Virus record (IMG/VR): IMGVR_UViG_3300033804_000036
Strand: one strand, 5' to 3'
Origin: a virus
Lineage: Duplodnaviria; Heunggongvirae; Uroviricota; Caudoviricetes
DNA length: 64,000 nt
Both the position numbers and the translations under genes were made by a program. The notes under the pieces are model-generated. The model searched no databases and was not told the origin of the DNA. It saw nothing but the letters and a program-made list of their open reading frames with translations. Of the stretch, positions 4,440 to 49,780 are shown in pieces; the first letter of the stretch is position 1; every line of letters starts with the position of its first letter.

Positions 4440-4805
4440 ATGACGTTTCATCTAGCGTTTAAAGTGACGGAAGTTAGAGAAGACGAACATAACCCTGACC
4501 ACGTCCAACTCTACGCAGTAGTCGAAGCCCCTCAAGAACCCAAACAACAGCAACAGCCTAAAGTAATACAAATCGGCATTCCAGAGAAAGACGACGTATC
4601 CAATTTCGGACAGAAACTCCAAACGTCGCTGACAGAAGCAGGGCTAATGCCACAGCAAAGAAAACGTCCCATAGCGGGAATCAGCCTGTACATCTCAGCG
4701 CACCAGTTCATCCAGCTTGGCAGACCTTCAGTCGGAGACCTCATCAGCATAGACGCGGAAACCCTGCCGAGAGGTTTTGACGCGCCCGCCAAGTCCGAGG
4801 AATAA
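4440..4805 (+). CDS. Hypothetical protein, 121 aa
   Basis: gggtgaatgtagATG motif start. Confidence 0.45.
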   Translation: MTFHLAFKVTEVREDEHNPDHVQLYAVVEAPQEPKQQQQPKVIQIGIPEKDDVSNFGQKLQTSLTEAGLMPQQRKRPIAGISLYISAHQFIQLGRPSVGDLISIDAETLPRGFDAPAKSEE

Positions 4806-4807
4806 CC

Positions 4808-5005
4808 ATGACCCAGAAGGTTGACGGCAAACATCCACAGAAGATTGAAGTCCCACCAGACGGCTGTGACGCATGGCCCCATTGCAACACCTGTCCATAC
4901 CCATGCACGGAAACACAGATCGCCGAGAAAGTCGGCAAAATCAGACAACAACTCATAGCAAATGCTGAAAGACGAAAGAACCCAAACTGGAAGAACGACC
5001 TATGA
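4808..5005 (+). CDS. Small Cys-rich protein, 65 aa
   Basis: ATG overlaps the upstream stop. Contains CDAWPHCNTCPYPC. Confidence 0.35.
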   Translation: MTQKVDGKHPQKIEVPPDGCDAWPHCNTCPYPCTETQIAEKVGKIRQQLIANAERRKNPNWKNDL

Positions 5006-5527
5006 AAGTTCACAGATACGTGATTTGCAATGTCAAACAAGAACACTGGAAAGACGTTGAAGAAGCGTTGATAACCCTAGTTCAAAAAGGAATCATAAAA
5101 ACTACAGATGTCCACACAATGGAAGAAGAGGAAAGAAAATGACTTGGTGTCGTAAGCAGCAGAGAGAAGTCAAAGAATCGGATGAGTGCCTGTTCTGCGA
5201 CGAGTACGAGCCGAACCAATGGGACAACTGGTGCAAACTCAAAAGGAAAAGAATCTAACTTCCGCACCCCCTATTTCTACACAGTTAGGGTAGACCTTTT
5301 CAGTGCAGAATACCCACTCGTGTCCATAGCGCCCATCAGGGTGAATAAATGACAGGCCCAGAATTTTTTCAGACACCGATGGGACGCGACTTCTACGACC
5401 ATACGATGCCAGCGATAGCCAAAGCTTTAACGCGGATAGCAACTGCTATGAAGCAAGACACAAACCTAGCACTTGTCAAATAGCAAATTCTAAATAATAC
5501 TTCCACCTTTTTCTAGGGTGAAGCCGA

Positions 5528-5923
5528 ATGTTGAAGTGGCTTAGGAAACTCCTGCGGTTCAGGAATCACGATAGTTTTCAAAAAACAGAAACTGAAAACC
5601 ATGGGGAAACGGAGAAACGTATTAGAGCCGAGGAAAACCCCAAAGCGATGACGAGCGACACTCCTCCCATTCCCCACTCTACAACATGGCCTAGAAACCC
5701 CACCTTCTCCGAAGTGATTGACCTTTCCCCTGAAAACCTAAGCAGACCTACGAGGCAAAGGCGATTGCCGAACCCTGAACTTCCTTCTAAGCAACTGCAC
5801 AGCCGACCTCTTTCTGAAATGAGTCTTGGCAAACGTGGAATGCACCGATCTAAAGCGTCAACGGCACACCAGAACAGACTGTGGAATCCTAAAGCGAAAC
5901 CTGAAGACCCTGAAGACGACTAA
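5528..5923 (+). CDS. Hypothetical basic, proline-rich protein, 131 aa
   Basis: ggtgaagccgaATG motif start. Confidence 0.4.
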   Translation: MLKWLRKLLRFRNHDSFQKTETENHGETEKRIRAEENPKAMTSDTPPIPHSTTWPRNPTFSEVIDLSPENLSRPTRQRRLPNPELPSKQLHSRPLSEMSLGKRGMHRSKASTAHQNRLWNPKAKPEDPEDD

Positions 5924-5962
5924 TCCCTTTTTTCTTTTTTTTCCGCTTTGGGTGAAGCCGAA

Positions 5963-6688
5963 ATGGTTTTACTGCAGATAGAAGACCTCAGCGTGGAAGT
6001 CAGCAAGAAAAAGCTGAACAGCAACATACTGTTTCCAGAGCCGAAGCCGTATCGGCCGTTGAAGCAGCTTGACGAAAAAGCAAAGGTCATCGACCCAGCC
6101 GACGTAGTTGAATTGCACCGCCAACGTACATACACTCTTCGGGCCGACGGTTCAGTGATTGGAACAACGGCGCAGGTGTCGTACAAGGATGAATGGGTTG
6201 ACAACGAAGGCAAAGTAGCCGACATAATCCTGTGGCTTCTCATGAAAGACGGCAAGCTTGTTCCATCGAAGCAGTACAGCGCCTCCAGGGTCATCACAGG
6301 AATTCTTCAGATCTCGAGGAAGATTGTGGAGAACTGGGTTCCTGAAAGCGTCTACGAAATCTACATCAGCCGCAGAAAATACAACGAAGCTGAATACGGA
6401 CGTATGCAGGCGCTTCTGTTCAAGAAGGCTGAAGAATGGTACGCCAACGACAGGGCTATGCTTGGACAATTCGTCTTCAGAGAGGGCGGCAGACCGTACG
6501 CCATGCTATTGTTCCCATACATCAGGAAGGAAGGCAACACCTGCAAGTTCTGTTTCGTCATGGCGTGCAGCAGAACAAAACAGGAATTCGAGAACCTGAT
6601 GGAGTTCTCAACTGCACTGAGACAGCCGACTGTGCTTCTGGCTGAGGAACCGAACAACGAGGAACTATTGAGAGCAATTGCTCAGTAA
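5963..6688 (+). CDS. Hypothetical protein, ~241 aa
   Basis: gggtgaagccgaaATG. The track ORF begins 15 nt earlier at a TTG inside the motif. Confidence 0.5.
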   Translation: MVLLQIEDLSVEVSKKKLNSNILFPEPKPYRPLKQLDEKAKVIDPADVVELHRQRTYTLRADGSVIGTTAQVSYKDEWVDNEGKVADIILWLLMKDGKLVPSKQYSASRVITGILQISRKIVENWVPESVYEIYISRRKYNEAEYGRMQALLFKKAEEWYANDRAMLGQFVFREGGRPYAMLLFPYIRKEGNTCKFCFVMACSRTKQEFENLMEFSTALRQPTVLLAEEPNNEELLRAIAQ

Positions 6689-7981: not shown

Positions 7982-8013
7982 CCTGCCGCCGCAAGCGCAC
8001 GAGGGACTAAGTA

Positions 8014-8280
8014 ATGCCTGCCCTTTACATTCATGAACTCTACGCCAAAGTCTCCAAGGCCCGTGAGTCATGTGCAGGTTCAAAAGTTGCAGACCTGCCT
8101 GTGGTTCTCAGAAATATTCAAGACGCATTAAACTATGCAGTTGCTAATCAGGCGGAACAATCGGTTATAATGAAACTCAACCAAGCATTGTCTCAAGTGA
8201 AAAACGCATCAGTCTGGGAAGACAGACTTCCAGCCGACGACTTACTCTGCGACATAATGAACCATGACCTAACTGTTTAA
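8014..8280 (+). CDS. Hypothetical protein, 88 aa
   Basis: ORF with an upstream purine-rich site. Confidence 0.4.
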   Translation: MPALYIHELYAKVSKARESCAGSKVADLPVVLRNIQDALNYAVANQAEQSVIMKLNQALSQVKNASVWEDRLPADDLLCDIMNHDLTV

Positions 8281-8322
8281 ATTCTTAAATCCTACTTTTT
8301 TCTATTTATGCCGGGTGACAAG

Positions 8323-8544
8323 ATGAGTTATTGGAGATTGCTATGTCTTCTGCCGTTGGCGTACATCATATGGTGGTTCTACGCTCTTTTGACCTGGATT
8401 ATCCCTGCCGCTAACAATCCAATCGGAGGAATCGCTGGAACAACTTGGCTGCAAGTAGTATCAGTCATCCTCTTCTTCTCACTGGGCCTCCTACTGTTGA
8501 TAGTTGCCTTCATAGCTTTCGTCGGAGTACTCATAGCAGATTGA
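8323..8544 (+). CDS. Small membrane protein
   Basis: ccgggtgacaagATG. Two hydrophobic helices. Confidence 0.45.
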   Translation: MSYWRLLCLLPLAYIIWWFYALLTWIIPAANNPIGGIAGTTWLQVVSVILFFSLGLLLLIVAFIAFVGVLIAD

Positions 8545-12941: not shown

Positions 12942-13682
12942 ATGCCAATAACAAAGCTAGTGCTAGAATCTGCATGTAAAGAATCATGGGAGCTAGGATA
13001 CATTCTTGGCGTAATATGTGGAGATGGTTTCATCCGTCAACAGCATTACGTCTGCCTGACAACAACCAACAAAGAGTTTGCACTTGCTTTTAATAATGTT
13101 CTCCAAAGATGGAGCGGTGTGAAACCATACTTATATGAATATGACAGAGCAATCAAGGGCAAACCATATCATTACTACTATGCAGGTATTGCATCGAAGA
13201 CTGCAGTAGCAATACTCAGAAATATAGGACAATTCGGAACTTATACATGGAACATTCCCGATATTGTTTCTCATAATAGAGACATGACAAAGGGCTTTCT
13301 AAGTGGGTGGTTTGATTCAGAAGGAAATATTTCTAACTGTTATCTTCACAGAAAGATTAGAGGATTCAGCGTTAACAAGGCAGGTTTACTTCAAGTTAAG
13401 CAGTTGCTTGCGATGTTTAAAATTGAATCATATGTAGGTCTCTTTATGAAGCAGAACTCGAAAGTCTGGACAGATAATCCACGACCATACTATTACATAG
13501 CATTCGAAGGAAGGGAGAAATTAATAAAATTCAAAGATACCGTTACATTTCAACGGCAAACAATGACCGAGAAATTAGCAAAATTACTCCAATCATACAG
13601 AAATATGGACGTAGAAGATGGCAGAATGAAAGGACTGCTCAGTTGTTGGCATAACGAGGGTGAAATAAATAAAGGAGTGTGA
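12942..13682 (+). CDS. LAGLIDADG homing endonuclease, two-motif, free-standing
   Basis: LGYILGVICGDGFI and KGFLSGWFDSEGNIS. A tatatatac TATA-like element lies upstream, where the GGGTGAA motif is absent. Confidence 0.75.
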   Translation: MPITKLVLESACKESWELGYILGVICGDGFIRQQHYVCLTTTNKEFALAFNNVLQRWSGVKPYLYEYDRAIKGKPYHYYYAGIASKTAVAILRNIGQFGTYTWNIPDIVSHNRDMTKGFLSGWFDSEGNISNCYLHRKIRGFSVNKAGLLQVKQLLAMFKIESYVGLFMKQNSKVWTDNPRPYYYIAFEGREKLIKFKDTVTFQRQTMTEKLAKLLQSYRNMDVEDGRMKGLLSCWHNEGEINKGV

Positions 13683-36795: not shown

Positions 36796-36872
36796 AGACA
36801 ATTAGCTCAACCTGGTTGAGCATTGGCCTATAGAGCCGAAGAATGAGGGTTCAAATCCCCCATTGTCTACCA
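36796..36872 (+). tRNA. tRNA with an AUA anticodon (Tyr-like) and CCA encoded. The only + strand tRNA
   Basis: Acceptor AGACAAT/ATTGTCT, D-arm GCTC-aacctggtt-GAGC, anticodon arm TTGGC-CTATAGA-GCCGA, T-arm GAGGG-TTCAAAT-CCCCC, then A-CCA. Confidence 0.55.
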
Positions 36873-38062: not shown

Positions 38063-38248
38063 ATGAGGCTAGGATTCAACATAGGAGCTTTCCTTGTGGG
38101 TTTCGGCACACCAGCGTTCGTTTACGGTGTTGTCGAATGGTGCTCACAGAAGCCACGTGTATTCTACCTAGTTGAAATGGTTGTGGGACTTTCTGTAACT
38201 GCAGCAGGATTTCTCTTGATATATGCTTCGGAGAAAAGAAAGAAATGA
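38063..38248 (+). CDS. Small membrane protein
   Basis: Two TM helices. Confidence 0.45.
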   Translation: MRLGFNIGAFLVGFGTPAFVYGVVEWCSQKPRVFYLVEMVVGLSVTAAGFLLIYASEKRKK

Positions 38249-39042
38249 CAAAGTTCACGTTTGACAAGTTCAGCTTTGACATCGACAAGTCTTTCCTGAA
38301 GCTTTCACTGCTGCTGGTTGTCAGCGGATCCCATGCTTACGGATGGCCTACTGAAGCAAGCGACTTGGATGTACGCCATGTTTTCGCCCCTGAAATCAGA
38401 CAGGCACTCAGCATATTCTACAAATGCAAGACAGAACAGCGTAAAGAAAAACATGAGGAAGGACTGATTGAATTCACAACCTATCCGATTCAGCCTTTCC
38501 TCGGGCTGCTCGCTAAAGGCAACGGAAACGTGCTGGACAACCTTTTCGAAGCCACAGGACCGCCGCAGCCAGTGCTTTACGTTGACAAACCGAAAGTTGT
38601 GGAATTGCAGAAAATAGTTCTTGATCATCTGCACAAAGGGTTTCTGATGCACTGCACCGGGTACGACACTCATCTGAAGAAAGACATGGAAAACGAGACG
38701 AGGCTAGCGCGGTACGGCAGAGAGAAGCTGCTGCTTAACAGGTACAAGATTCTGCTGGAAGGACTGATCCTCGCCAACTACGGCGAAGTAGTCTACAATC
38801 TCAGGAAACAACACGAATACATAAAGACGCTCTGGTGCATTGAACTACTAGAAGATTACCAAGCAGGCAGGCCGTTTCTCGCGTTTCTCGGCAGAAGAGC
38901 AAACCAAGAAGCAACACTTGAAGTTGAGCAACTGCATAGTCGACTGGTAAAGTTGACGGAAACAATAAAGTGGCCTACCGCAGGGCAAAGCACCATCGAC
39001 GTTCCCTTGGACAGATGGTTAATCAATCACTATCTCCCCTAA
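38245..39042 (+). CDS. Pol-beta-superfamily nucleotidyltransferase
   Basis: VSGSHAYGWPTEASDLDV (GS ... D.D). Substrate unknown. Confidence 0.55.
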   Translation: MTKFTFDKFSFDIDKSFLKLSLLLVVSGSHAYGWPTEASDLDVRHVFAPEIRQALSIFYKCKTEQRKEKHEEGLIEFTTYPIQPFLGLLAKGNGNVLDNLFEATGPPQPVLYVDKPKVVELQKIVLDHLHKGFLMHCTGYDTHLKKDMENETRLARYGREKLLLNRYKILLEGLILANYGEVVYNLRKQHEYIKTLWCIELLEDYQAGRPFLAFLGRRANQEATLEVEQLHSRLVKLTETIKWPTAGQSTIDVPLDRWLINHYLP

Positions 39043-44504: not shown

Positions 44505-44735
44505 ATGAGCAACTGCATAGGCCACCTGTACGAATATTATTCTCATTTCACCCTCAACCAAAACGATTTGTCAATCATGCGTAAATGGGTAACATGCACC
44601 TGCTACTGCCCACGCTGCAACGTCCACCACAACTGTTTCAGGCCAGAATACTGGATAGAATCAGACTCAAAAAACAACCCGCCATGGTGCTGTAAAAAAA
44701 GAGAATCTCCCCGGCAGGAATCGAACCTGCACTGA
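44505..44735 (+). CDS. Cys-rich protein, 76 aa (doubtful)
   Basis: First ATG 40 nt after the last motif copy. Its 3' end overlaps a tRNA-like fragment. Confidence 0.25.
   Translation: MSNCIGHLYEYYSHFTLNQNDLSIMRKWVTCTCYCPRCNVHHNCFRPEYWIESDSKNNPPWCCKKRESPRQESNLH
44708..44735 (-). other. Orphan tRNA 3' fragment (T-arm + acceptor 3' strand)
   Basis: tccccgg-GCAGG-aatcgaa-CCTGC. No matching 5' acceptor strand was found nearby. Confidence 0.4.
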
Positions 44736-44769: not shown

Positions 44770-44841
44770 TCCTCTCACATGGATTCGCACCATGACTTCT
44801 TGGTTTACGGCCAAGTGTGCTAACTACTACACTATGAGAGG
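44770..44841 (-). tRNA. tRNA-Tyr(GTA)
   Basis: Hand fold: acceptor cctctca/tgagagg, T-arm catgg-attcgca-ccatg, anticodon arm cttgg-tttacgg-ccaag (RC loop CCGTAAA). Confidence 0.55.
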
Positions 44842-45224
44842 CTGATTTCGTATTTCAGTCCAAATTTATTCTCGATATAATGTGCGGCATTGCAAACATG
44901 ACACAGCACGTTAAACTCGTTTTTTCGTTGTTCTCGAAGAATACTTCTAAGTAATTGCCAATATCCGTGTGTTTTCTGATCTTTATGTCCTCCGAGGTTA
45001 AGGTGATTGATTTCCAACACGGCGAAGACGGTACATCCACATCTTGCGCATTTTGCTCCGCCGAGGTATTCAAGCACCTTTAACTTCAAATTTTGTTTGG
45101 CTCGGCTGTCTATGATGTGTTGTTTTTCAGGATTTTTCTGTCTCCATTTTTTCACGTAGTCACGATTGAACTCTCTCATATAGGTTCGTCGTTTGTCCTT
45201 GTCTTTGTATCTATCGTGTGGCAT
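44832..45224 (-). CDS. HNH endonuclease
   Basis: CARCGC ... EINHLNLGGH ... CHVCN. Paralog of 48099-48470 and 48850-49263. Its 3' end overlaps the 5' end of tRNA-Tyr. Confidence 0.65.
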   Translation of the reverse strand: MPHDRYKDKDKRRTYMREFNRDYVKKWRQKNPEKQHIIDSRAKQNLKLKVLEYLGGAKCARCGCTVFAVLEINHLNLGGHKDQKTHGYWQLLRSILREQRKNEFNVLCHVCNAAHYIENKFGLKYEISLS

Positions 45225-45258
45225 AACAGATTAATAATATCTGTTATGCTATATACCC

Positions 45259-45828
45259 TTATGCTACGGGGAGTCCTACAACCGAAGTTATGATCCAGAT
45301 CTTGTCAGAAGTTGCCAGTGGCGATGGCACAGTGTACGTTTTAATCCAGAAAGTCACAGTGTAGTCGTCATAGTCGAATTTGCAGCCTGTTTTTTCTTCT
45401 TCGTTCATCTTGACAAAGACATCGTAGAATCGTCTTTGAAGTTCAGGATCGTCTTTAGACGTGACACGCAAAGTTTTGCCAGACGCCAAATGCAGCACAT
45501 TCTTCGCGCAGTTGCGAATGAACCCGTCAATCTTGTCCTTGTTCTTCGCCCGTATCCAACCGCTTTTGAACACTCGACGAACCTGAAGTCGCTTGTCAAC
45601 TTTTGCGAGCAGAAGGCTGATTTCCCCTTCAGCGTTGAACCTTGCAGAAACCAATGTAGGCCGCTGGAACTGTCCTCTACTCTCCTTAACAGGATACATA
45701 GGCGTCACTTCTTCAATGTAAACACCGAACCCGCCAAACAAGTATCTCAGATATTTGGCGTTGTCACTGTACACTAGAAACTTCGTCACCTCCTTGGGCA
45801 AATCCAAACCTTTCGAACTCACTTTCAT
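45259..45828 (-). CDS. Hypothetical protein, 189 aa, in the tRNA array
   Basis: Perfect GGAGGTGA SD before the ATG. Lies between tRNA-Pro and the HNH gene. Possibly a nuclease. Confidence 0.5.
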   Translation of the reverse strand: MKVSSKGLDLPKEVTKFLVYSDNAKYLRYLFGGFGVYIEEVTPMYPVKESRGQFQRPTLVSARFNAEGEISLLLAKVDKRLQVRRVFKSGWIRAKNKDKIDGFIRNCAKNVLHLASGKTLRVTSKDDPELQRRFYDVFVKMNEEEKTGCKFDYDDYTVTFWIKTYTVPSPLATSDKIWIITSVVGLPVA

Positions 45829-45845
45829 TCACCTCCGTATATTAT

Positions 45846-45938
45846 ACCTATGAATGGGGAATAAGGGATTTGAACCCTTGACCACGACGTTTCTTGAGAT
45901 TATCTTCCCAAGCGTCGGATGCTTAGTCCAAGCTACAC
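45846..45938 (-). tRNA. tRNA-Pro(TGG) with a ~16-nt intron
   Basis: Acceptor ggggaat/attcccc, T-arm aaggg-atttgaa-ccctt, anticodon stem CGACG/CGTCG enclosing loop CTTGGG plus intron. Confidence 0.55.
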
Positions 45939-45993
45939 CAATTCCCCACAGATTTTATTATTTTGTGATTTTATTATTTTCTGATTTTATTAT

Positions 45994-46105
45994 TGGCGGA
46001 GCAGCCGGGATTTGAACCCGGGCCGTACGATTACTGCAGACGGAAGTTTGCAACTATTTCTTCCGTCTTAGACAGTCGCACATCCTACCGCTGGACCACT
46101 GCTCC
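45994..46105 (-). tRNA. tRNA-Asp(GTC) with a ~38-nt intron, CCA encoded
   Basis: Acceptor ggagcag/ctgctcc + G + CCA. D-arm GTCC-agcggta-GGAT. Anticodon stem TGCGA/TCGTA. Intron hairpin GACGGAAG ... CTTCCGTC. Confidence 0.6.
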
Positions 46106-46162
46106 CTCGAGCGCGGTTTTCATGTTGTTTTTCCATCTTTTGAATTCCCTCGAGCGCAGAGA

Positions 46163-46234
46163 GGGCCGAGGGCGGGAGTCGAACCCGCATCCCAGGATTC
46201 ACAGACCTGTATCCTACCGTTAGCCTACCTCGGC
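46163..46234 (-). tRNA. tRNA-His(GTG) with G-1 encoded
   Basis: Acceptor GCCGAGG plus an extra 5' G pairing the discriminator C. Loop CTGTGAA. Confidence 0.65.
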
Positions 46235-46342
46235 CACTGTGTATGCCTTGCTGAACCAAGTCAGCTAGGGCTTCGGTCCCAATGGAGTTTTACGCTAGCT
46301 TATCCTAAGCCTTCCTTAATGGTTCTGGCATTTAGGCCACAG

Positions 46343-46415
46343 TGGAGAGGATGGGAATTGAACCCATGATAACGGCCTCTTCAGGACCGCGCCTTCCCTC
46401 TTGGCGACCTCTCCG
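46343..46415 (-). tRNA. tRNA-Phe(GAA)
   Basis: Acceptor ggagagg/cctctcc. Anticodon arm CGGTC-CTGAAGA-GGCCG. Confidence 0.6.
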
Positions 46416-46417
46416 AG

Positions 46418-46490
46418 CGCCGCCCGATGGAGTCGAACCATCACCTTCTGGCTCAACAGGCCAGCGCACTACCATTTATGCTAAGGCGGC
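46418..46490 (-). tRNA. tRNA-Asn(GTT)
   Basis: T-arm gatgg-agtcgaa-ccatc. Anticodon arm ctggc-tcaacag-gccag (RC loop CTGTTGA). Confidence 0.6.
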
Positions 46491-46494
46491 ATAG

Positions 46495-46568
46495 TAGGCG
46501 AGGGGCGACTCGAACGCCCACTACCGACTTATAAGGACGGCGTGCACAGCCACGTACACTACTCGCCC
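46495..46568 (-). tRNA. tRNA, anticodon unresolved (possibly TAT)
   Basis: Clear T-arm gggcg-actcgaa-cgccc and a 7-bp acceptor. The anticodon arm has a mismatch. Confidence 0.4.
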
Positions 46569-46592
46569 ACTTGTGGTGCGTTACGCACCGAG

Positions 46593-46663
46593 TGCACTCG
46601 GCGGGAATTGAACCCGCGTCTCCGCCATGGCAAGGCGACATCTTACCACTGGACCACGAGTGC
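46593..46663 (-). tRNA. tRNA-Gly(GCC)
   Basis: Perfect acceptor gcactcg/cgagtgc. Loop RC TTGCCAT. Confidence 0.55.
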
Positions 46664-46667
46664 TTGG

Positions 46668-46783
46668 GGCCGGTGGAGAGATTTGAACTCTCATCTTGCT
46701 GCTTACTCGGCAGGTACATGCTTACGATCTGCGTAAGGCGCTGCTTACAATGCAGGCGCTCTAACCATTGAAGCTACACCGGC
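46668..46783 (-). tRNA. tRNA-Thr(TGT) with a ~42-nt intron
   Basis: Acceptor gccggtg/caccggc, T-arm gagag-atttgaa-ctctc. Loop ATTGTAA. Internal hairpins. Confidence 0.5.
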
Positions 46784-46787
46784 ACAG

Positions 46788-46861
46788 TGGGGATACTTGG
46801 ATTTGAACCAAGATCAACGGTTCTGGAGACCGCCATGCTAATCCGTTGGCACCATATCCCC
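46788..46861 (-). tRNA. tRNA-Trp(CCA)
   Basis: Acceptor ggggata/tatcccc. Anticodon stem cggt/accg. Loop RC CTCCAGA. Confidence 0.55.
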
Positions 46862-46890
46862 TTTTGCCTCAGAGATTCATCACAGGCGGA

Positions 46891-47038
46891 TAGGCGCGGA
46901 AGGAGTTGAACCTTCGTTAATTGCTTTCTTGGTTCCATGCTGGGGTGTCATCCCTCTTACCACGCCACGTCTACGTTTCCGACTAGCGACCAACACGAAA
47001 CTTGTAAGGCAAATGTCCTACCGTTAGACCACGCGCCT
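46891..47038 (-). tRNA. tRNA-Val(TAC) with a ~77-nt intron
   Basis: Acceptor aggcgcg/cgcgcct, T-arm gaagg-agttgaa-ccttc. Loop CTTACA plus intron. Confidence 0.45.
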
Positions 47039-47045
47039 GCTATGG

Positions 47046-47320
47046 TAGCCCCGGAGAGAATCGAACTCTCGTCATCGGCTTTCTCCAGCGTTATCGGAAG
47101 AGGCTGACACCAGCACGGTTTCTGCGCACCGTACCGCACGCTCCCCAGTACCGACACTTCCTGGGACTTAGGTTAGGCACATACCTCCTTTGCCGACGCA
47201 TCCAAAGGCTTATGCCCTCGTTAAGACACACCTCTTAGTCGCCCACAGAGGATTCTGGTACTACCAGAGCGTCAAAGTCTTTCAGAGGCCGACATCCTTT
47301 TCCAGTTGGACTACGGGGCT
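47046..47320 (-). tRNA. tRNA-Gln(CTG) with a ~200-nt intron
   Basis: 3' half 47047-47079: acceptor agccccg, T-arm gagag-aatcgaa-ctctc, stem TCGGC. 5' half 47281-47320: cggggct acceptor, D-arm GTCC/GGAT, stem GCCGA, loop CTCTGA. Confidence 0.5.
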
Positions 47321-47459
47321 GCGAAACTAGACGCGCTCAACCTCAGGGAACTAACAACGTGCCATAAGGCAAAGGCTCTTTTTGTAGCCACGTTCTGTTG
47401 CCCTGCTTGTACTGGCTACCATCGGATATGTCATCTAGTTTTCTTCAGGCGCGTCGGAG

Positions 47460-47530
47460 TGCAGGATCCGCGAGTTGAACGCGGGTCTTAGCCTTGGAGG
47501 GGCCACGTCCTACCACTAGACTAATCCTGC
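47460..47530 (-). tRNA. tRNA, anticodon uncertain (loop CCUCCAA; Gly-TCC with C33?)
   Basis: Perfect acceptor gcaggat/atcctgc, T-arm ccgcg-agttgaa-cgcgg. Confidence 0.45.
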
Positions 47531-47548
47531 AAGTAGACTGCCTGCAAG

Positions 47549-47620
47549 TAGGCGTGGTCGGGGTTGAACCGACACATACAGCTTATCAGACTGTTGTGCA
47601 GACCAGCTACACCACACGCC
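47549..47620 (-). tRNA. tRNA-Ile(GAT)
   Basis: T-arm gtcgg-ggttgaa-ccgac. Anticodon arm acagc-ttatcag-actgt (RC loop CTGATAA). Confidence 0.55.
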
Positions 47621-47624
47621 CATA

Positions 47625-47771
47625 TACAGAGGAGAGGATTTGAACCTCCGTTCTCAAGGTTTCTCGCATCTCAATCGGCTAGGGATGCACGGCTAGTTCC
47701 TAGCAACCATCTAACGTGCTTCCATGAGATGTTATGAGCCTTGCGGGATAGCCTGACTACCCTACCTCTGT
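47625..47771 (-). tRNA. tRNA-Met(CAT) with a ~72-nt intron and an A1:U72 acceptor
   Basis: Acceptor acagagg/cctctgt. Anticodon stem caagg/ccttg. Loop CTCATAA. Confidence 0.5.
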
Positions 47772-47783
47772 TCGTTATTTTGG

Positions 47784-47929
47784 CGCTGGGTAGCGGATTT
47801 GGACCGCTGGTACCTTTTTGGGGTACATCAGATTTCTGCGGCCTCCATTCGAGTTACGCCCTTGTGAAGCGTTCAAGTCTCGTCTTGCCCATAGCAATCT
47901 GACGCATTAAGCCGCTCTGCCAACCCAGC
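47784..47929 (-). tRNA. tRNA-Ser(GCT), type II, with a ~58-nt intron
   Basis: Acceptor gctgggt/acccagc. Variable-arm hairpin GTACC-ccaaaaa-GGTAC. Anticodon stem TCAGA/TCTGA. Loop TTGCTA. Confidence 0.5.
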
Positions 47930-47947
47930 ACTTATATTTTTTGGTCA

Positions 47948-48108
47948 TAGTGGGGGTGGGATTCGAACCCACGCGTTGGCCCCTACGGGAAGAGGTTTCT
48001 CACAGGCTGAACAGTCGTTCTTAGCCGTCCTTAGCATCGAGCCTACGACTTGAGCTTCGAGCTTTAGTCTTAAGCCTCTCGCTTTCAGCCATGCTTAGCT
48101 ACCCCACT
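47948..48108 (-). tRNA. tRNA-Leu(TAA), type II, with a ~72-nt intron
   Basis: Acceptor agtgggg/ccccact. Variable arm TCCCGTAGGGG. Anticodon stem AGAGG/CCTCT. Loop CTTAAGA. Confidence 0.5.
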
Positions 48109-48470
48109 ACATTGTCTGGCAACCATTTTATGTCCCAATGATCTTCAATACCTCTTAACCTTGTCAAACAATGCCACGCATTGCATACTCTACAGGTTAG
48201 TTCCAGTTCATCTTTGTTTTGTTTTCCGTTCAGTATCGCAAAGTAGAATGCTCTTCGTGTCTGCCACTTCTTCCTTTTATGTCCGCCTCCGTTCTTATGG
48301 TTAATTTCCAAAGCTTCGGATATATCGCAACCACAATACACGCATTTTCCTCCAAGGAAAGCAAGCACGCGTTTTCTGAGCATCCGTCCATATTCGGCTC
48401 TTTGTAGTCTTCTTTTTCTTTGCCATTCTTTTTGATAGACTCTGTTTACTTCTCTATCAGCGTATGGCAT
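48099..48470 (-). CDS. HNH endonuclease
   Basis: CVYCGC ... EINHKNGGGH ... CRVCN. Overlaps the 5' end of tRNA-Leu. Confidence 0.65.
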   Translation of the reverse strand: MPYADREVNRVYQKEWQRKRRLQRAEYGRMLRKRVLAFLGGKCVYCGCDISEALEINHKNGGGHKRKKWQTRRAFYFAILNGKQNKDELELTCRVCNAWHCLTRLRGIEDHWDIKWLPDNVVG

Positions 48471-48520
48471 GAAAGAGGATATGGGTTCGACGGTATTAAG
48501 GTTATTGTTGAACCTTGTGG

Positions 48521-48642
48521 CGGATCCGGCGGGATTTGAACCCGCGAGTGGGAGCTATCCCTGCCCATTGTTTAAGGGGATCAGGCTTAAAGGGTTCAGG
48601 CTTCGCTGTCTCCTGCCTTAGACCTTACTGGGCGACGGATCC
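48521..48642 (-). tRNA. tRNA, intron-containing, anticodon unresolved
   Basis: Perfect acceptor ggatccg/cggatcc, T-arm gcggg-atttgaa-cccgc. Middle contains repeated GGGGATCAGGCTT / GGGTTCAGGCTT. Confidence 0.4.
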
Positions 48643-48650
48643 ATGTTTGG

Positions 48651-48816
48651 CGGGTGCGGAGAGATTTGAACTCTCGATCTGGAGGTTTCTCCAGTTCCTA
48701 ACTTTCGTAGCGTCAGGCTATTTCGGGTAATATCAACCTATCGAAGCATCAGGCTCTCAGAAGCTTCAGGTTTCTTTAGGAACCTCCTGCCTTCTTCCGA
48801 GCTAGGCGACGCACCC
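48651..48816 (-). tRNA. tRNA-Arg(CCT) with a ~90-nt intron
   Basis: Acceptor gggtgcg/cgcaccc. D-arm GCCT/AGGC. Anticodon stem GGAGG/CCTCC. Loop TTCCTAA. Confidence 0.5.
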
Positions 48817-48820
48817 TTGG

Positions 48821-49407
48821 TGGTCCCTCCGGGATTCGGACCCGGCTCGTTAGGTATGAAGTCTGATGTTTCGATATATCGTGGTCCAATTCCACTTCAG
48901 GTACTTCATGCAGAAGTGAACTCCGATGTGACACCAGTAGCATAGACGAACCCATTCGTCTGGTTCTAACAGTGCACGACGGAGTTCCGCTAAGGAATAA
49001 CTATGCTTTTTTCCATCTTTTCTATGGAGACTTAGTCTGTATTTACTGTTATCGCAGAGGATACACTTAGTTCCCCATACGATATCTCTCTGTTTCTTTA
49101 ATGTCTCCTTATACTGTCGTGTGCATTCGTTATTTGCAATTCTACGCTCCTCGAGGTTCTGTTTTTCACGTTTAATAGTAGTTCGCGTTGGAAGACCAAG
49201 TTTTTTCCTCTTGTACCACTCTCGTTGGTAGGTTCGTTTTGTTTCTCTATCTTTGAAAGGCATGAACTACTTATGGTTTTGAACCCTTATTAGTCTTTCG
49301 AACCCATCAGATGTCTTCCGTTCTGGATGAAAGCATCGTCCTCTCGTTGAGAGCCTAACATCCTTAGACGGCAAATTGTGCCTTTGTCCAGAATAGACTA
49401 AGGGACC
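48821..49407 (-). tRNA. tRNA-Glu(CTC) split by a ~490-nt intron enclosing an HNH gene. A second short insertion near the D-arm is possible
   Basis: 3' part 48822-48854: acceptor ggtccct, T-arm ccggg-attcgga-cccgg, stem ttagg. 5' part 49347-49407: stem cctaa, loop CTCTCAA, acceptor agggacc. Confidence 0.45.
48850..49263 (-). CDS. HNH endonuclease inside the putative tRNA-Glu intron
   Basis: CILCDN ... SLHRKDGKKH ... CYWCH. Same strand as the tRNA. Confidence 0.6.
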   Translation of the reverse strand: MPFKDRETKRTYQREWYKRKKLGLPTRTTIKREKQNLEERRIANNECTRQYKETLKKQRDIVWGTKCILCDNSKYRLSLHRKDGKKHSYSLAELRRALLEPDEWVRLCYWCHIGVHFCMKYLKWNWTTIYRNIRLHT

Positions 49408-49411
49408 GAGA

Positions 49412-49484
49412 GCGAGGTGCACGATTTGAACGTGCGAATATCGGTGTTGCGGACCGACGTGTTAACCATACTTCACCAACCCCG
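49412..49484 (-). tRNA. tRNA-Cys(GCA)? (loop CCGCAAC has C33)
   Basis: T-arm gcacg-atttgaa-cgtgc. Anticodon stem tcggt/accga. Confidence 0.45.
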
Positions 49485-49492
49485 CTTGAATT

Positions 49493-49586
49493 GTGGTGGA
49501 AGCTGGCGGATTCGAACCGCCGATCTTCTGCTGTTTTGGGATTGTTGTCCTTGCAAAGCAGTTGCTCTACCTCTGAGCTAAGCCCC
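49493..49586 (-). tRNA. tRNA-Ala(TGC) with a ~19-nt intron, CCA encoded, G3:U70
   Basis: RC reads GGGGGCT-TA-GCTCagaggtaGAGC-A-ACTGC-TTTGCA[intron]A-GCAGA ... GGCGG-TTCGAAT-CCGCC-AGCTTCC-A-CCA. Confidence 0.6.
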
Positions 49587-49780
49587 CATTAAAAACGGAT
49601 GCAAGGGAAATTCAACGTGGACTTAACCGCTTTTACTGGGCGGCTGACGCTTCAGAGTCTTGTGTTTTATGCTGTGGTCTACTCAGGCGGTTTAATCCGC
49701 CCTCCTTACATGAGAAGACTATAGACCCTTGCATGAAACACATTTTCAGTCCACTTAGCTTCAAGAGTGGCAGTTTCATG

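Follow-up and report, generated by a model that had tools for sequence, protein, structure and literature searches.

Can a tRNA array in which more than half of the genes are interrupted still provide a tRNA for every amino acid, and what are the sequences that interrupt it? These questions are raised by the virus record IMGVR_UViG_3300033804_000036, of which we analysed a stretch of 64 kb (hereafter the window) belonging to a 90,405-nt parent contig of the Joint Genome Institute (JGI). Between positions 49587 and 44770 its minus strand carries 22 tRNA genes that together cover 20 of 20 amino acids, with genes for HNH endonucleases lying between and inside them. We consider it likely, from the sequence and its relatives, that this is the tRNA array of a large archaeal virus-like element with mobile bulge-helix-bulge (BHB) introns and HNH endonucleases, and that its splicing would depend on the host. 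The locus was compared with related metagenomic loci and contigs, labelled L001, L003, L004, L009, L010, L011, L014, L024, L025, L027, L028 and L029, of which the syntenic ones, including L025 and L028, were found via an open reading frame (ORF) of 189 amino acids within the array.

Detection and composition of the tRNA array

We found that the Rfam tRNA model RF00005 matches the minus strand of the array (44770–49587) 16 times at gathering score and 18 times at E ≤ 1, while ARAGORN reports 11 genes in the region without its intron search and 19 with it. Exon boundaries were set from the cloverleaf together with BHB geometry, and when the genes were then spliced in silico ARAGORN recognized 22 of 22 with the expected anticodons. 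For genes with introns, ARAGORN's own anticodon assignments were in error (Ser for Pro, Asn for Asp, Pyl for Gln, and Cys for Val, Ser and Ala), and the manual assignments from cloverleaf and BHB geometry were used in their place. Starting from the high-numbered end, the anticodons run Ala UGC, Cys GCA, Glu CUC, Arg CCU, Lys UUU, Leu UAA, Ser GCU, Met CAU, Ile GAU, Gly UCC, Gln CUG, Val UAC, Trp CCA, Thr UGU, Gly GCC, Ile UAU, Asn GUU, Phe GAA, His GUG, Asp GUC, Pro UGG and Tyr GUA. The terminal CCA is encoded in the genes for Ala, Asp, Glu, Arg, Lys, Ser, Gln and Thr. Codon usage in 32 window genes, taken without a host genome for comparison, fits the array anticodons at AUA, ACA, GGA/GGC and AAA and fits poorly at Glu(CUC) and Arg(CCU), which read minor codons. 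By analogy with large phages, the array would supply at least one tRNA per amino acid, sustaining viral translation when host tRNAs are limiting, codon-mismatched or attacked.

Much of this agrees with an initial annotation of the same DNA, made by reading the sequence, which had described a near-complete tRNA array of a large virus-like element with archaeal BHB introns and interleaved HNH genes; that description is retained, with the word virus taken from gene content only. Its count of about 22 tRNA genes stands after splicing, while its tally of about 19 amino acids rises to the full 20. Among the genes it could not assign, the one at 48642–48521 is now read as a tRNA-Lys with two introns, and a supposed 23rd gene turned out to be the two ends of a disrupted tRNA-Tyr. 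It had put the number of interrupted genes at 11 or more, which the present total bears out, and its intron size range of 16 to ~490 nt is adjusted to 15–492 nt. The three paralogous HNH ORFs (49263–48850, 48470–48099 and 45224–44832) and the one further ORF (45828–45259) that it placed between tRNA genes were found again, as were the identity elements that it took as signs of function, G3:U70 in tRNA-Ala and an encoded G-1 opposite C73 in tRNA-His. Encoded CCA, which it had noted in Asp and Ala, occurs in six more genes.

BHB introns and their predicted removal

In the BHB geometry that we applied, the exon bases at −6 to −3 pair with their intron counterparts, also −6 to −3. Each bulge is 3 nt long: one comprises the final two bases of the exon and the opening base of the intron, the other the final two bases of the intron and the opening base of the exon that follows. 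Twelve of the 22 genes are interrupted, by 14 introns of 15–492 nt. As would be expected of the archaeal-style introns proposed initially, the central 4-bp helix (H) is perfect at 11 of the 14 junctions and has a single mismatch (3/4) at the remaining three (Met, Val and Thr). Perfect H helices were found at 1.3% of boundaries slid by up to 6 nt and at 1.8% of random positions in the same region (binomial P ~2 × 10−17). Eleven introns lie at the canonical position 37/38, and three lie elsewhere: in the D arm (Glu intron 1), at 30/31 (Lys intron A) and at 33/34 (an alternative Thr intron).

Relatives that lack an intron provide a direct comparison for the predicted junctions. Spliced junctions equal the intronless L025 orthologues for Ala, Val (61 of 72 positions identical) and Asp, including U37 of the latter, and the L028 orthologue for the D arm of tRNA-Glu; the Ala intron itself is found in L028. 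These results support the assignment of the introns to the archaeal BHB type, with precise removal predicted to yield functional tRNAs. Comparison across relatives further indicates that intron content turns over quickly within the virus group.

Splicing is presumably carried out by the endonuclease and ligase of the host. This dependence, a reasonable inference of the initial annotation, follows from the absence of any detected splicing endonuclease or RtcB among the 82 window ORFs in a Pfam scan, with ~26 kb of the parent contig lying beyond the window.

Two candidate structures were set aside. A single canonical BHB for the 492-nt Glu intron gave H 0/4, and the nested solution found for it was subsequently borne out by L028. 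A BHB-like motif at 46331–46243, in the interval between Phe and His (h 8, H 4/4), was within the chance expectation of a scan of the whole region. Several interruptions seen in relatives are absent from the window: within 7246–8130 of L028, tRNA-Met has a long intron in its D-loop, Ile-GAU and Gly-UCC are each interrupted by an intron, and tRNA-Gln has a T-loop insertion, and L027 has a T-loop insertion in tRNA-Asp (409–511).

Mobility of HNH-bearing introns

The longest intron in the array, in tRNA-Glu, consists of a short leader followed by a 457-nt element that holds an HNH gene. The ends of this element form a BHB of their own (H GAAG/CTTC 4/4, 3-nt bulges ACA/ATA and a 7-bp outer helix h′), and the cut at its 3′ side falls where the 3′ exon begins. 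In L028, which is ~84% identical here, tRNA-Glu has a 35-nt intron only; both the D-arm intron of 20 nt and the 457-nt element are lacking, with breakpoints precisely at the predicted cuts. Homologous HNH genes lie within 37/38 introns of eight other tRNA genes in relatives (Table 1), three of them with matching empty sites. L001 Thr is intronless relative to L009 Thr, with the junction at the site predicted from the BHB; L027 Pro is intronless relative to L028 Pro, with one mismatch; and Ile-UAU of the window is intronless relative to that of L028. Together with window Glu against L028, these pairs display presence/absence polymorphism with precise boundaries. A free-standing HNH gene behaves similarly, as the segment holding HNH gene 2 (~48514–48111, ~404 nt) is absent from the syntenic L028, where tRNA-Leu directly follows tRNA-Lys. 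The comparisons identify these elements, at the level of sequence, as mobile BHB introns with a homing-type HNH endonuclease, in a gene family that moves in two ways, within BHB introns or as free-standing cassettes.

All three HNH proteins of the window have the motif MPxKDRE..R.YQREW near the N terminus, followed by a core of the form CxxC...H...CxxC(H/N). In an alignment of seven members C67, C70, H87, C108 and C111 are invariant, in keeping with zinc-binding CxxC pairs on either side of the catalytic His and Asn/His motif. Matches to PHROG HNH families were obtained for gene 1 (PHROG 2255, E = 2 × 10−8) and gene 2 (E = 4 × 10−5 to 1 × 10−3), with none below 0.001 for gene 3; Pfam gave no match for any of the three, and neither did a search of PDB sequences with an HNH profile. 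The AlphaFold model of HNH gene 3 has a predicted local distance difference test score (pLDDT) of 86.7, and the best structural match of the HNH protein, the HNH nickase of phage T5, is consistent with an HNH fold. Promoter-like sequence lies upstream of each gene of the family. A motif resembling a B recognition element and TATA box (BRE/TATA), AAGNNTTWWATA, stands at the start of HNH introns in L001-type loci and was not found in the window.

We infer that the HNH enzymes cut intron-less alleles. Under the mechanism we propose, an HNH enzyme would, during co-infection, cut a relative's tRNA allele that is intron-less or of foreign type, and repair would copy the HNH gene together with its BHB-forming ends. 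The host endonuclease would then make the insertion tolerable by excising it from the pre-tRNA, a step for which the BHB structure is present in the sequence and the splicing itself is predicted.

Some further observations bear on the endonucleases and their surroundings. In L001, gene-free stretches at 4624–6099 and 8078–8540 contain tRNA halves with very long insertions, together with repeated BRE/TATA-like boxes CCGTAAGNNTTAAATA, and probably hold further interrupted tRNAs that are unannotated. The leader of the Glu intron (49313–49347, minus strand) contains GCTTTCA, a copy of a Glu-UUC-like loop, and the GAAG strand beside it pairs fully with CTTT and at 3/4 with the resident CTCT; the copy may be the remnant of a UUC cassette or donor exon sequence copied in during homing. 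The window also encodes a LAGLIDADG protein of 246 amino acids (12942–13682, plus strand), with a second, weaker LAGLIDADG match among the smaller ORFs, and with HNH genes present as well the element therefore hosts at least two unrelated endonuclease families.

Displacement of the resident tRNA-Tyr

HNH gene 1 is associated with a different kind of event. In L025, L027 and L028 an intact tRNA-Tyr starting with CTCCCCGTAGCATAA directly follows the 189-amino-acid ORF, and HNH gene 1 is absent. The window keeps only the first 15 nt (45273–45259) and the last 25 nt (44730–44706) of this resident gene; between them lie a TATA stretch that resembles a promoter, HNH gene 1 and a tRNA-Tyr whose sequence (CCTCTCA...) is of another type and, in comparison with L027, L025 and L001, resembles the Tyr of L001-type arrays. 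The alignments thus show that a cassette of HNH gene 1 and a foreign tRNA-Tyr has replaced the middle of the resident tRNA-Tyr, destroying it. An attempt to read the two remnants as one working tRNA gave no cloverleaf by any single deletion, only implausible calls, and L027, L025 and L028 show that they derive from a disrupted tRNA-Tyr.

Two candidate anticodon mini-exons within single genes

The tRNA-Lys gene contains two near-identical units, AAGCCTGA(A/T)CCC(T/C)TTAA, and can be spliced in silico around either a UUU or a CUU mini-exon. The UUU path gives the product GGAGC-CCUUUAA-GCUCC; four of four H helices are 4/4, and ARAGORN calls both spliced forms tRNA-Lys. Both cassettes are kept in L028, where both paths have H 4/4, h 6 and, after the first step, h′ 3–4, and L025 has the two loop sequences as well. 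In the window each cassette has C:G at pair 31:39 and in L028 each has G:C, with G:C also read from the sequence of L025, and this shift is, as far as alignment can tell, a compensatory change involving both cassettes. tRNA-Thr likewise has repeated anticodon modules; L028 retains TGT and CGT, and L025 has these two in the opposite order.

We scanned all introns for loop copies differing from the resident loop only at position 34 and found four genes, with ~0.3 expected by chance for the window introns. Related cases in other arrays are tRNA-Glu of L011, with UUC/CUC cassettes and all H helices 4/4, and tRNA-Gln of L014, with UUG/CUG cassettes and an extra intron of H 4/4, h 3 and h′ 2. All two-cassette pairs are U34/C34 for the same amino acid, and in all four genes the intron base opposite position 34 is G, which therefore pairs with U or C. 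Neither the window array nor that of L011 has a further gene dedicated to the second isoacceptor; the L014 contig is too short to judge.

That one gene would give two isoacceptors, U34 and C34, through alternative BHB cis-splicing is, on this evidence, a proposition that we regard as evenly balanced. We put at somewhat short of even the chance that the second Lys and Thr anticodon copies are inert leftovers of duplication or recombination with neighbouring isoacceptor genes, each gene then yielding one tRNA. Short direct repeats flank other insertions too, such as AACGAG at the Glu intron, and repeats could be homogenised by conversion; in addition, the CUU path of the window Lys has a weak second intron (h′ 0), and the Thr paths include H 3/4. 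Leftovers of this kind are harder to reconcile with the number of position-34-only copies relative to chance and their restriction to U34/C34 pairs of one amino acid, with flanking H helices that are 4/4 throughout in Lys, Glu and Gln, with the persistence of both Lys cassettes in L028 and L025 and the covariation of 31:39 in both, or with two-cassette arrays that have no separate gene for the second isoacceptor.

Other solutions for the Lys gene were tried and rejected. Reading 48642–48521 as Arg(GCG) with A33 left no BHB (H 1/4), and a strict BHB at 48618–48577 gave no cloverleaf, while the two-intron Lys solution fits on every count. The L025 orthologue of tRNA-Lys (7997–8371) has an apparent ORF of 124 amino acids between UUU-type and CUU-type loop copies, and an ORF-bearing intron would thus separate the two cassettes there.

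Gene content and host

The gene content of the window was assessed by scanning 82 ORFs with Pfam and 62 with PHROGs. The window encodes PCNA, an ATP-dependent DNA ligase, the LAGLIDADG protein, ThiF, an Rnl-type RNA ligase, RlaP, NAMPT (PHROG 448, E = 8 × 10−162), DUF5131, an AAA ATPase and sugar-nucleotide enzymes, and about two thirds of its ORFs have no family match. PCNA matches haloarchaeal viruses only, at 24–28% identity. Related arrays occur in more than 10 metagenomic contigs, and the relatives encode PolB, ribonucleotide reductase, dCMP deaminase and MCM. Looking up window proteins by exact match, and scanning IMG/VR with PCNA and with the tRNA-Ala sequence, found nothing.

An archaeal host is well supported by the BHB introns, the class I tRNA-Tyr with C1:G72, PCNA and the ATP-dependent ligase, and the gene content points to a virus. 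We refer to an archaeal virus-like element because no virion gene, splicing endonuclease or RtcB was recognized in the window. HNH relatives in two Thorarchaeota metagenome-assembled genomes (MAGs) did not yield a host assignment: they are 30–34% identical, are fused to helix-turn-helix domains and lie in cellular contexts, and are a weak hint only.

The Rnl-type RNA ligase (PF09414; 34937–35671) and the RlaP nucleotidyltransferase (38245–39042), both on the plus strand, lie close together and are also present in L024, L028 and L029, which suggests virus-encoded tRNA repair, consistent with host attack on tRNAs. The interval between them contains a lone tRNA gene (36796–36872, plus strand; Rfam 59.7 bits) with loop CTATAGA (anticodon AUA), A1:U72 and encoded CCA; it is identical in L024, and a reader of Tyr codons with A34 is very unusual.

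Coordinates and further features of the array

Table 1 Features of the tRNA array (window coordinates) and HNH-bearing introns of related loci (length). H, matched positions of the central 4-bp helix; h and h′, lengths in bp of the other helices of the hBHBh′ motif.
Feature	Position or length	Strand	Properties
tRNA-Ala(UGC)	49497..49587	-	G3:U70; CCA 49496-49494; Rfam 57 bits
Ala intron	49551-49533, 19 nt, 37/38	-	strict hBHBh′; H TTTG/CAAA 4/4, h 4, h′ 3
tRNA-Cys(GCA)	49411..49485	-	intronless; C33, U73; Rfam 54.3 bits, ARAGORN
tRNA-Glu(CUC)	48821..49407	-	CCA encoded; ARAGORN Glu(ctc) after splicing
Glu intron 1	49383-49364, 20 nt, D arm	-	H GGAC/GTCT 4/4, h′ 4
Glu intron 2	49347-48856, 492 nt, 37/38	-	35-nt leader 49347-49313 plus 457-nt HNH element 49312-48856
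HNH gene 3 (137 amino acids)	48850..49263	-	within Glu intron 2; last two codons (ACC TAA) enter 3′ exon
tRNA-Arg(CCU)	48651..48816	-	CCA encoded; ARAGORN
Arg intron	48776-48687, 90 nt, 37/38	-	H TTCC/GGAG 4/4, h 5, h′ 2
tRNA-Lys	48521..48642	-	CCA encoded; two anticodon mini-exons; Rfam 33.5 bits
Lys UUU mini-exon CCCTTTA	48594-48588	-	introns 48609-48595 (15 nt, 30/31) and 48587-48557 (31 nt, 37/38)
Lys CUU mini-exon CCCCTTA	48579-48573	-	introns 48609-48580 and 48572-48557
HNH gene 2 (123 amino acids)	48099..48470	-	free-standing, tRNA-Lys/tRNA-Leu interval; stop codon within tRNA-Leu 5′ end
tRNA-Leu(UAA)	47948..48108	-	class II; A1:U72; Rfam 41.3 bits
Leu intron	48068-47997, 72 nt, 37/38	-	H CTTA/TGAG 4/4, h 6, h′ 1
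tRNA-Ser(GCU)	47784..47929	-	class II; CCA encoded; ARAGORN
Ser intron	47891-47834, 58 nt, 37/38	-	H TTGC/GCAG 4/4, h 9, h′ 2
tRNA-Met(CAU)	47625..47771	-	A1:U72; Rfam 47.2 bits
Met intron	47732-47661, 72 nt, 37/38	-	H 3/4 (A35.C mismatch), h 5, h′ 7
tRNA-Ile(GAU)	47549..47621	-	intronless; Rfam 60.7 bits; L028 orthologue interrupted (read from sequence)
tRNA-Gly(UCC)	47460..47530	-	intronless; C33 (kept in L025); Rfam 61.3 bits
Non-tRNA element	47322..47462	-	Gly(UCC)/Gln interval; 7-bp terminal stem GACGCGC/GCGCGTC, variable middle
tRNA-Gln(CUG)	47046..47320	-	A1:U72; CCA encoded; ARAGORN after splicing
Gln intron	47281-47081, 201 nt, 37/38	-	H CTCT/GGAG 4/4, h 7, h′ 2
tRNA-Val(UAC)	46891..47038	-	Rfam 51.1 bits
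Val intron	47002-46926, 77 nt, 37/38	-	H 3/4, h 4, h′ 12
tRNA-Trp(CCA)	46788..46861	-	intronless; Rfam 55.8 bits
tRNA-Thr	46668..46783	-	repeated anticodon modules TGT, CGT, AGT; CCA encoded; Rfam 45 bits
Thr UGU path	intron 46745-46704, 42 nt, 37/38	-	H 3/4, h 4, h′ 4
Thr CGU path	intron 46749-46727, 23 nt, 33/34, plus 19-nt intron	-	46749-46727: strict BHB, H CTGC/GCAG 4/4, h′ 5
tRNA-Gly(GCC)	46593..46663	-	intronless; Rfam 63.8 bits
tRNA-Ile(UAU)	46495..46568	-	intronless; empty site relative to L028 HNH intron; Rfam 49.3 bits
tRNA-Asn(GUU)	46418..46490	-	intronless; Rfam 63 bits
tRNA-Phe(GAA)	46343..46414	-	intronless; Rfam 59.5 bits
tRNA-His(GUG)	46164..46235	-	encoded G-1 (46235) opposite C73; Rfam 55.8 bits
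tRNA-Asp(GUC)	45997..46105	-	U37; CCA encoded; Rfam 52.4 bits
Asp intron	46069-46032, 38 nt, 37/38	-	H CTGT/GCAG 4/4, h 7, h′ 9
tRNA-Pro(UGG)	45855..45947	-	Rfam 42.7 bits
Pro intron	45906-45891, 16 nt, 37/38	-	H CTTG/CAAG 4/4, h 5, h′ 3
ORF of 189 amino acids	45259..45828	-	Pro/Tyr interval; stop codon in 5′ remnant of resident tRNA-Tyr
Resident tRNA-Tyr 5′ remnant CTCCCCGTAGCATAA	45259..45273	-	same as first 15 nt of intact Tyr in L027, L025, L028
HNH gene 1 (130 amino acids)	44832..45224	-	inserted in resident tRNA-Tyr; stop codon within incoming tRNA-Tyr
tRNA-Tyr(GUA)	44770..44841	-	class I; C1:G72, C33; Rfam 62.4 bits
Resident tRNA-Tyr 3′ remnant GCAGGTTCGATTCCTGCCGGGGAGA	44706..44730	-	T arm and acceptor strand, T run after; matches L027 Tyr 3′ end, complements 5′ remnant
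L001 Arg-UCU HNH intron	527 nt		H 4/4, h 5, h′ 9
L004 Gly-UCC HNH intron	443 nt		H 4/4, h 5, h′ 5
L009 Arg-UCU HNH intron	407 nt by ARAGORN		junctions read from sequence; helix not scored
L009 Thr-UGU HNH intron	504 nt		H 4/4, h 5, h′ 3
L010 Pro-UGG HNH intron	398 nt		H 4/4, h 5, h′ 4
L011 Val-UAC HNH intron	472 nt		H 3/4, h 5, h′ 5
L028 Pro-UGG HNH intron	451 nt		H 4/4, h 5, h′ 1
L028 Ile-UAU HNH intron	~443 nt, 37/38		H CTTA/TAAG 4/4, read by hand

Several tRNAs of the array have unusual loop bases. C33 replaces the near-universal U33 in Tyr (44770–44841), Gly-UCC (47460–47530), Cys (49411–49485) and Lys (48521–48642), and Asp has U37; these bases are kept in relatives (Lys and Cys in L001, Gly and Asp in L025). 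They might alter recognition by anticodon nucleases or modification enzymes.

The ORF between tRNA-Pro and tRNA-Tyr had no Pfam or PHROG match. Its homologues, at 53–99% identity, occupy the same array position in L024, L025, L027 and L028. The 140-nt element at 47322–47462 gave no Rfam match at E ≤ 1. In comparison with L028, ~65 nt at its 5′ end (two differences) and 30 nt at its 3′ end are near-identical, a higher conservation than in the tRNA genes on either side, and the central part differs; the element may encode a small RNA of unknown kind with a variable insert of its own.

Discussion

Several features of the locus weigh against our interpretation, and some of them would suit an array in decay, invaded by selfish genes and introns, in which many interrupted genes (Glu, Lys, Thr and perhaps others) are pseudogenes. 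The resident tRNA-Tyr is in fact destroyed, the outer intron of Glu has H 3/4 and relies on nested two-step excision, the Met, Val and Thr introns each have one mismatch in H, and C33 in Tyr, Gly-UCC, Cys and Lys and U37 in Asp are unusual and could mean reduced function, though they are kept in relatives. Decay is nonetheless quite unlikely in our assessment, because all 22 spliced products are cloverleaves recognized by ARAGORN, perfect H helices are far above chance, exons are conserved in relatives despite differing intron content, and the compensatory change at Lys 31:39 and the conserved C33 and U37 argue for selection; decay would also lose the sole copy for 18 of 20 amino acids. Other reservations concern the endonucleases and the element itself. 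HNH gene 3 has no significant family match (best PHROG 8060, E = 0.0065), and its top Foldseek matches are HNH proteins that do not reach significance. No capsid, portal or terminase was found among the ORFs scanned in the 64-kb window, and the element could be plasmid-like; this negative does not exclude a virus, because ~26 kb of the parent contig is outside the window.

The missing virion genes also leave room for a cellular archaeal chromosome, a plasmid or a Borg-like element, with the array as the tRNA cluster of the cell or element, and distant HNH relatives do occur in Thorarchaeota MAG contigs beside housekeeping genes such as PGK. We judge this unlikely, given that 64 kb contain no housekeeping genes and ~two thirds of ORFs without a family match, that NAMPT, DUF5131, RNA ligase with RlaP, homing endonucleases and nucleotide-sugar genes are typical of large viruses, that the syntenic relatives are separate contigs of 16–110 kb with PolB, RNR and MCM, and that packing a single copy of almost every tRNA into 4.8 kb follows a viral pattern. 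Finally, the long ORF-bearing introns could be thought of as self-splicing group I introns, which are well known with HNH or GIY-YIG genes in tRNA anticodon loops (PMC3984707). We give this next to no chance: only 50–70 nt of each ORF-bearing intron lie outside the ORF, which rules out group I self-splicing because this is too short for a ribozyme core; no Rfam group I model was matched at gathering score in the window, L001 or L003; and the intron ends fold into classic hBHBh′ motifs whose 3-nt bulges fall precisely on the junctions that the empty sites confirm. A tRNA array of an archaeal virus-like element with mobile BHB introns thus remains the reading that we consider likely.

The T5 tRNA region carries HNH nicking endonucleases. 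A SegB homing endonuclease gene is found in the T4-type tRNA region (PMC13096335), and the window resembles such large-phage clusters in its dense one-strand array with small endonuclease genes between tRNA genes. The T5-like analogy drawn by the initial annotation therefore holds as to function but fails as to membership, as PCNA, the ATP-dependent ligase, class I tRNA-Tyr and BHB introns point to an archaeal host. In contrast to T4 and T5, this array has archaeal-type tRNAs, as seen from the BHB introns and from a class I Tyr with C1:G72, over half of its genes contain introns, and endonucleases lie within protein-spliced introns. Archaeal rRNA BHB introns of the I-DmoI and I-PorI type offer another parallel, combining an intron excised at a BHB by the archaeal splicing endonuclease, a homing endonuclease gene and presence/absence polymorphism, and those in 16S rRNA of Thermoproteales encode LAGLIDADG homing endonucleases (PMC4496867); these are cellular, whereas the introns described here lie in viral tRNA genes, encode HNH proteins and hop between tRNA species. 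Group I introns in the anticodon loops of bacterial and phage tRNAs are likewise mobile and carry endonuclease ORFs, but are ribozymes, whereas here the ends are BHB and there is no ribozyme core.

Among archaeal viruses, the closest likeness is HGTV-1, which has a near-complete tRNA set of 34 genes, one with an intron, a number termed exceptionally high for an archaeal virus in 2026 (PMC13532342). HGTV-1 is a haloarchaeal tailed virus of high GC that lacks tRNA-His, whereas here 12 of 22 genes are interrupted, some by non-canonical, nested or HNH-bearing introns, and PCNA is only 24–28% identical to halovirus PCNAs. Many interrupted tRNAs, often with several introns and at non-canonical positions, are also known from Thermoproteales and from the Asgard groups Atabeyarchaeia and Freyarchaeia (PMC11291895, PMC4090602), but those are cellular genes with short introns that lack ORFs, whereas this is a mobile element whose intron content varies among close relatives. 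Wetland-soil Asgard lineages have 92–95% intron-containing tRNAs (PMC11291895), which is a hint only as to the host.

The proposed use of two mini-exons has its nearest counterpart in split tRNAs. In the split and tri-split tRNAs of Nanoarchaeum and Caldivirga, isoacceptors share halves. As in the two-cassette genes, a tRNA piece is reused for isoacceptors differing in anticodon, and cleavage is at a BHB; split tRNAs are joined in trans from separate transcripts, whereas two mini-exons in one gene with alternative cis-splicing are proposed here. A tRNA-Lys(CUU) split at 30/31 is known (PMC4090602), which is the position of Lys intron A in the window. In the open-access literature searched we found no HNH gene described within a BHB intron, no intron-rich tRNA array reported from an archaeal virus and no account of an anticodon set by alternative cis-splicing. 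The best-supported view, judged from sequence comparison, is that a viral tRNA array with mobile, endonuclease-bearing, protein-spliced introns combines known kinds of element, while the two-cassette genes would be categorically new if confirmed.

A full 20-amino-acid tRNA set outside the haloviruses would widen the known cargo of archaeal viruses. Expression of such an array would rely on host tRNA splicing, which would tie viral translation to host RNA processing and could provide a handle for host prediction. The filled and empty sites in close relatives indicate that, within tRNA genes, BHB introns accompanied by an HNH endonuclease act as mobile DNA. The route by which introns spread among archaeal tRNA genes, and the reason for their abundance in certain lineages, have been at issue for about twenty years, and viral arrays could be both a testing ground and a vector. 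If the two-cassette genes work as proposed, they would be the first case of alternative cis-splicing that sets a tRNA anticodon, and would expand the decoding capacity of a compact viral genome.

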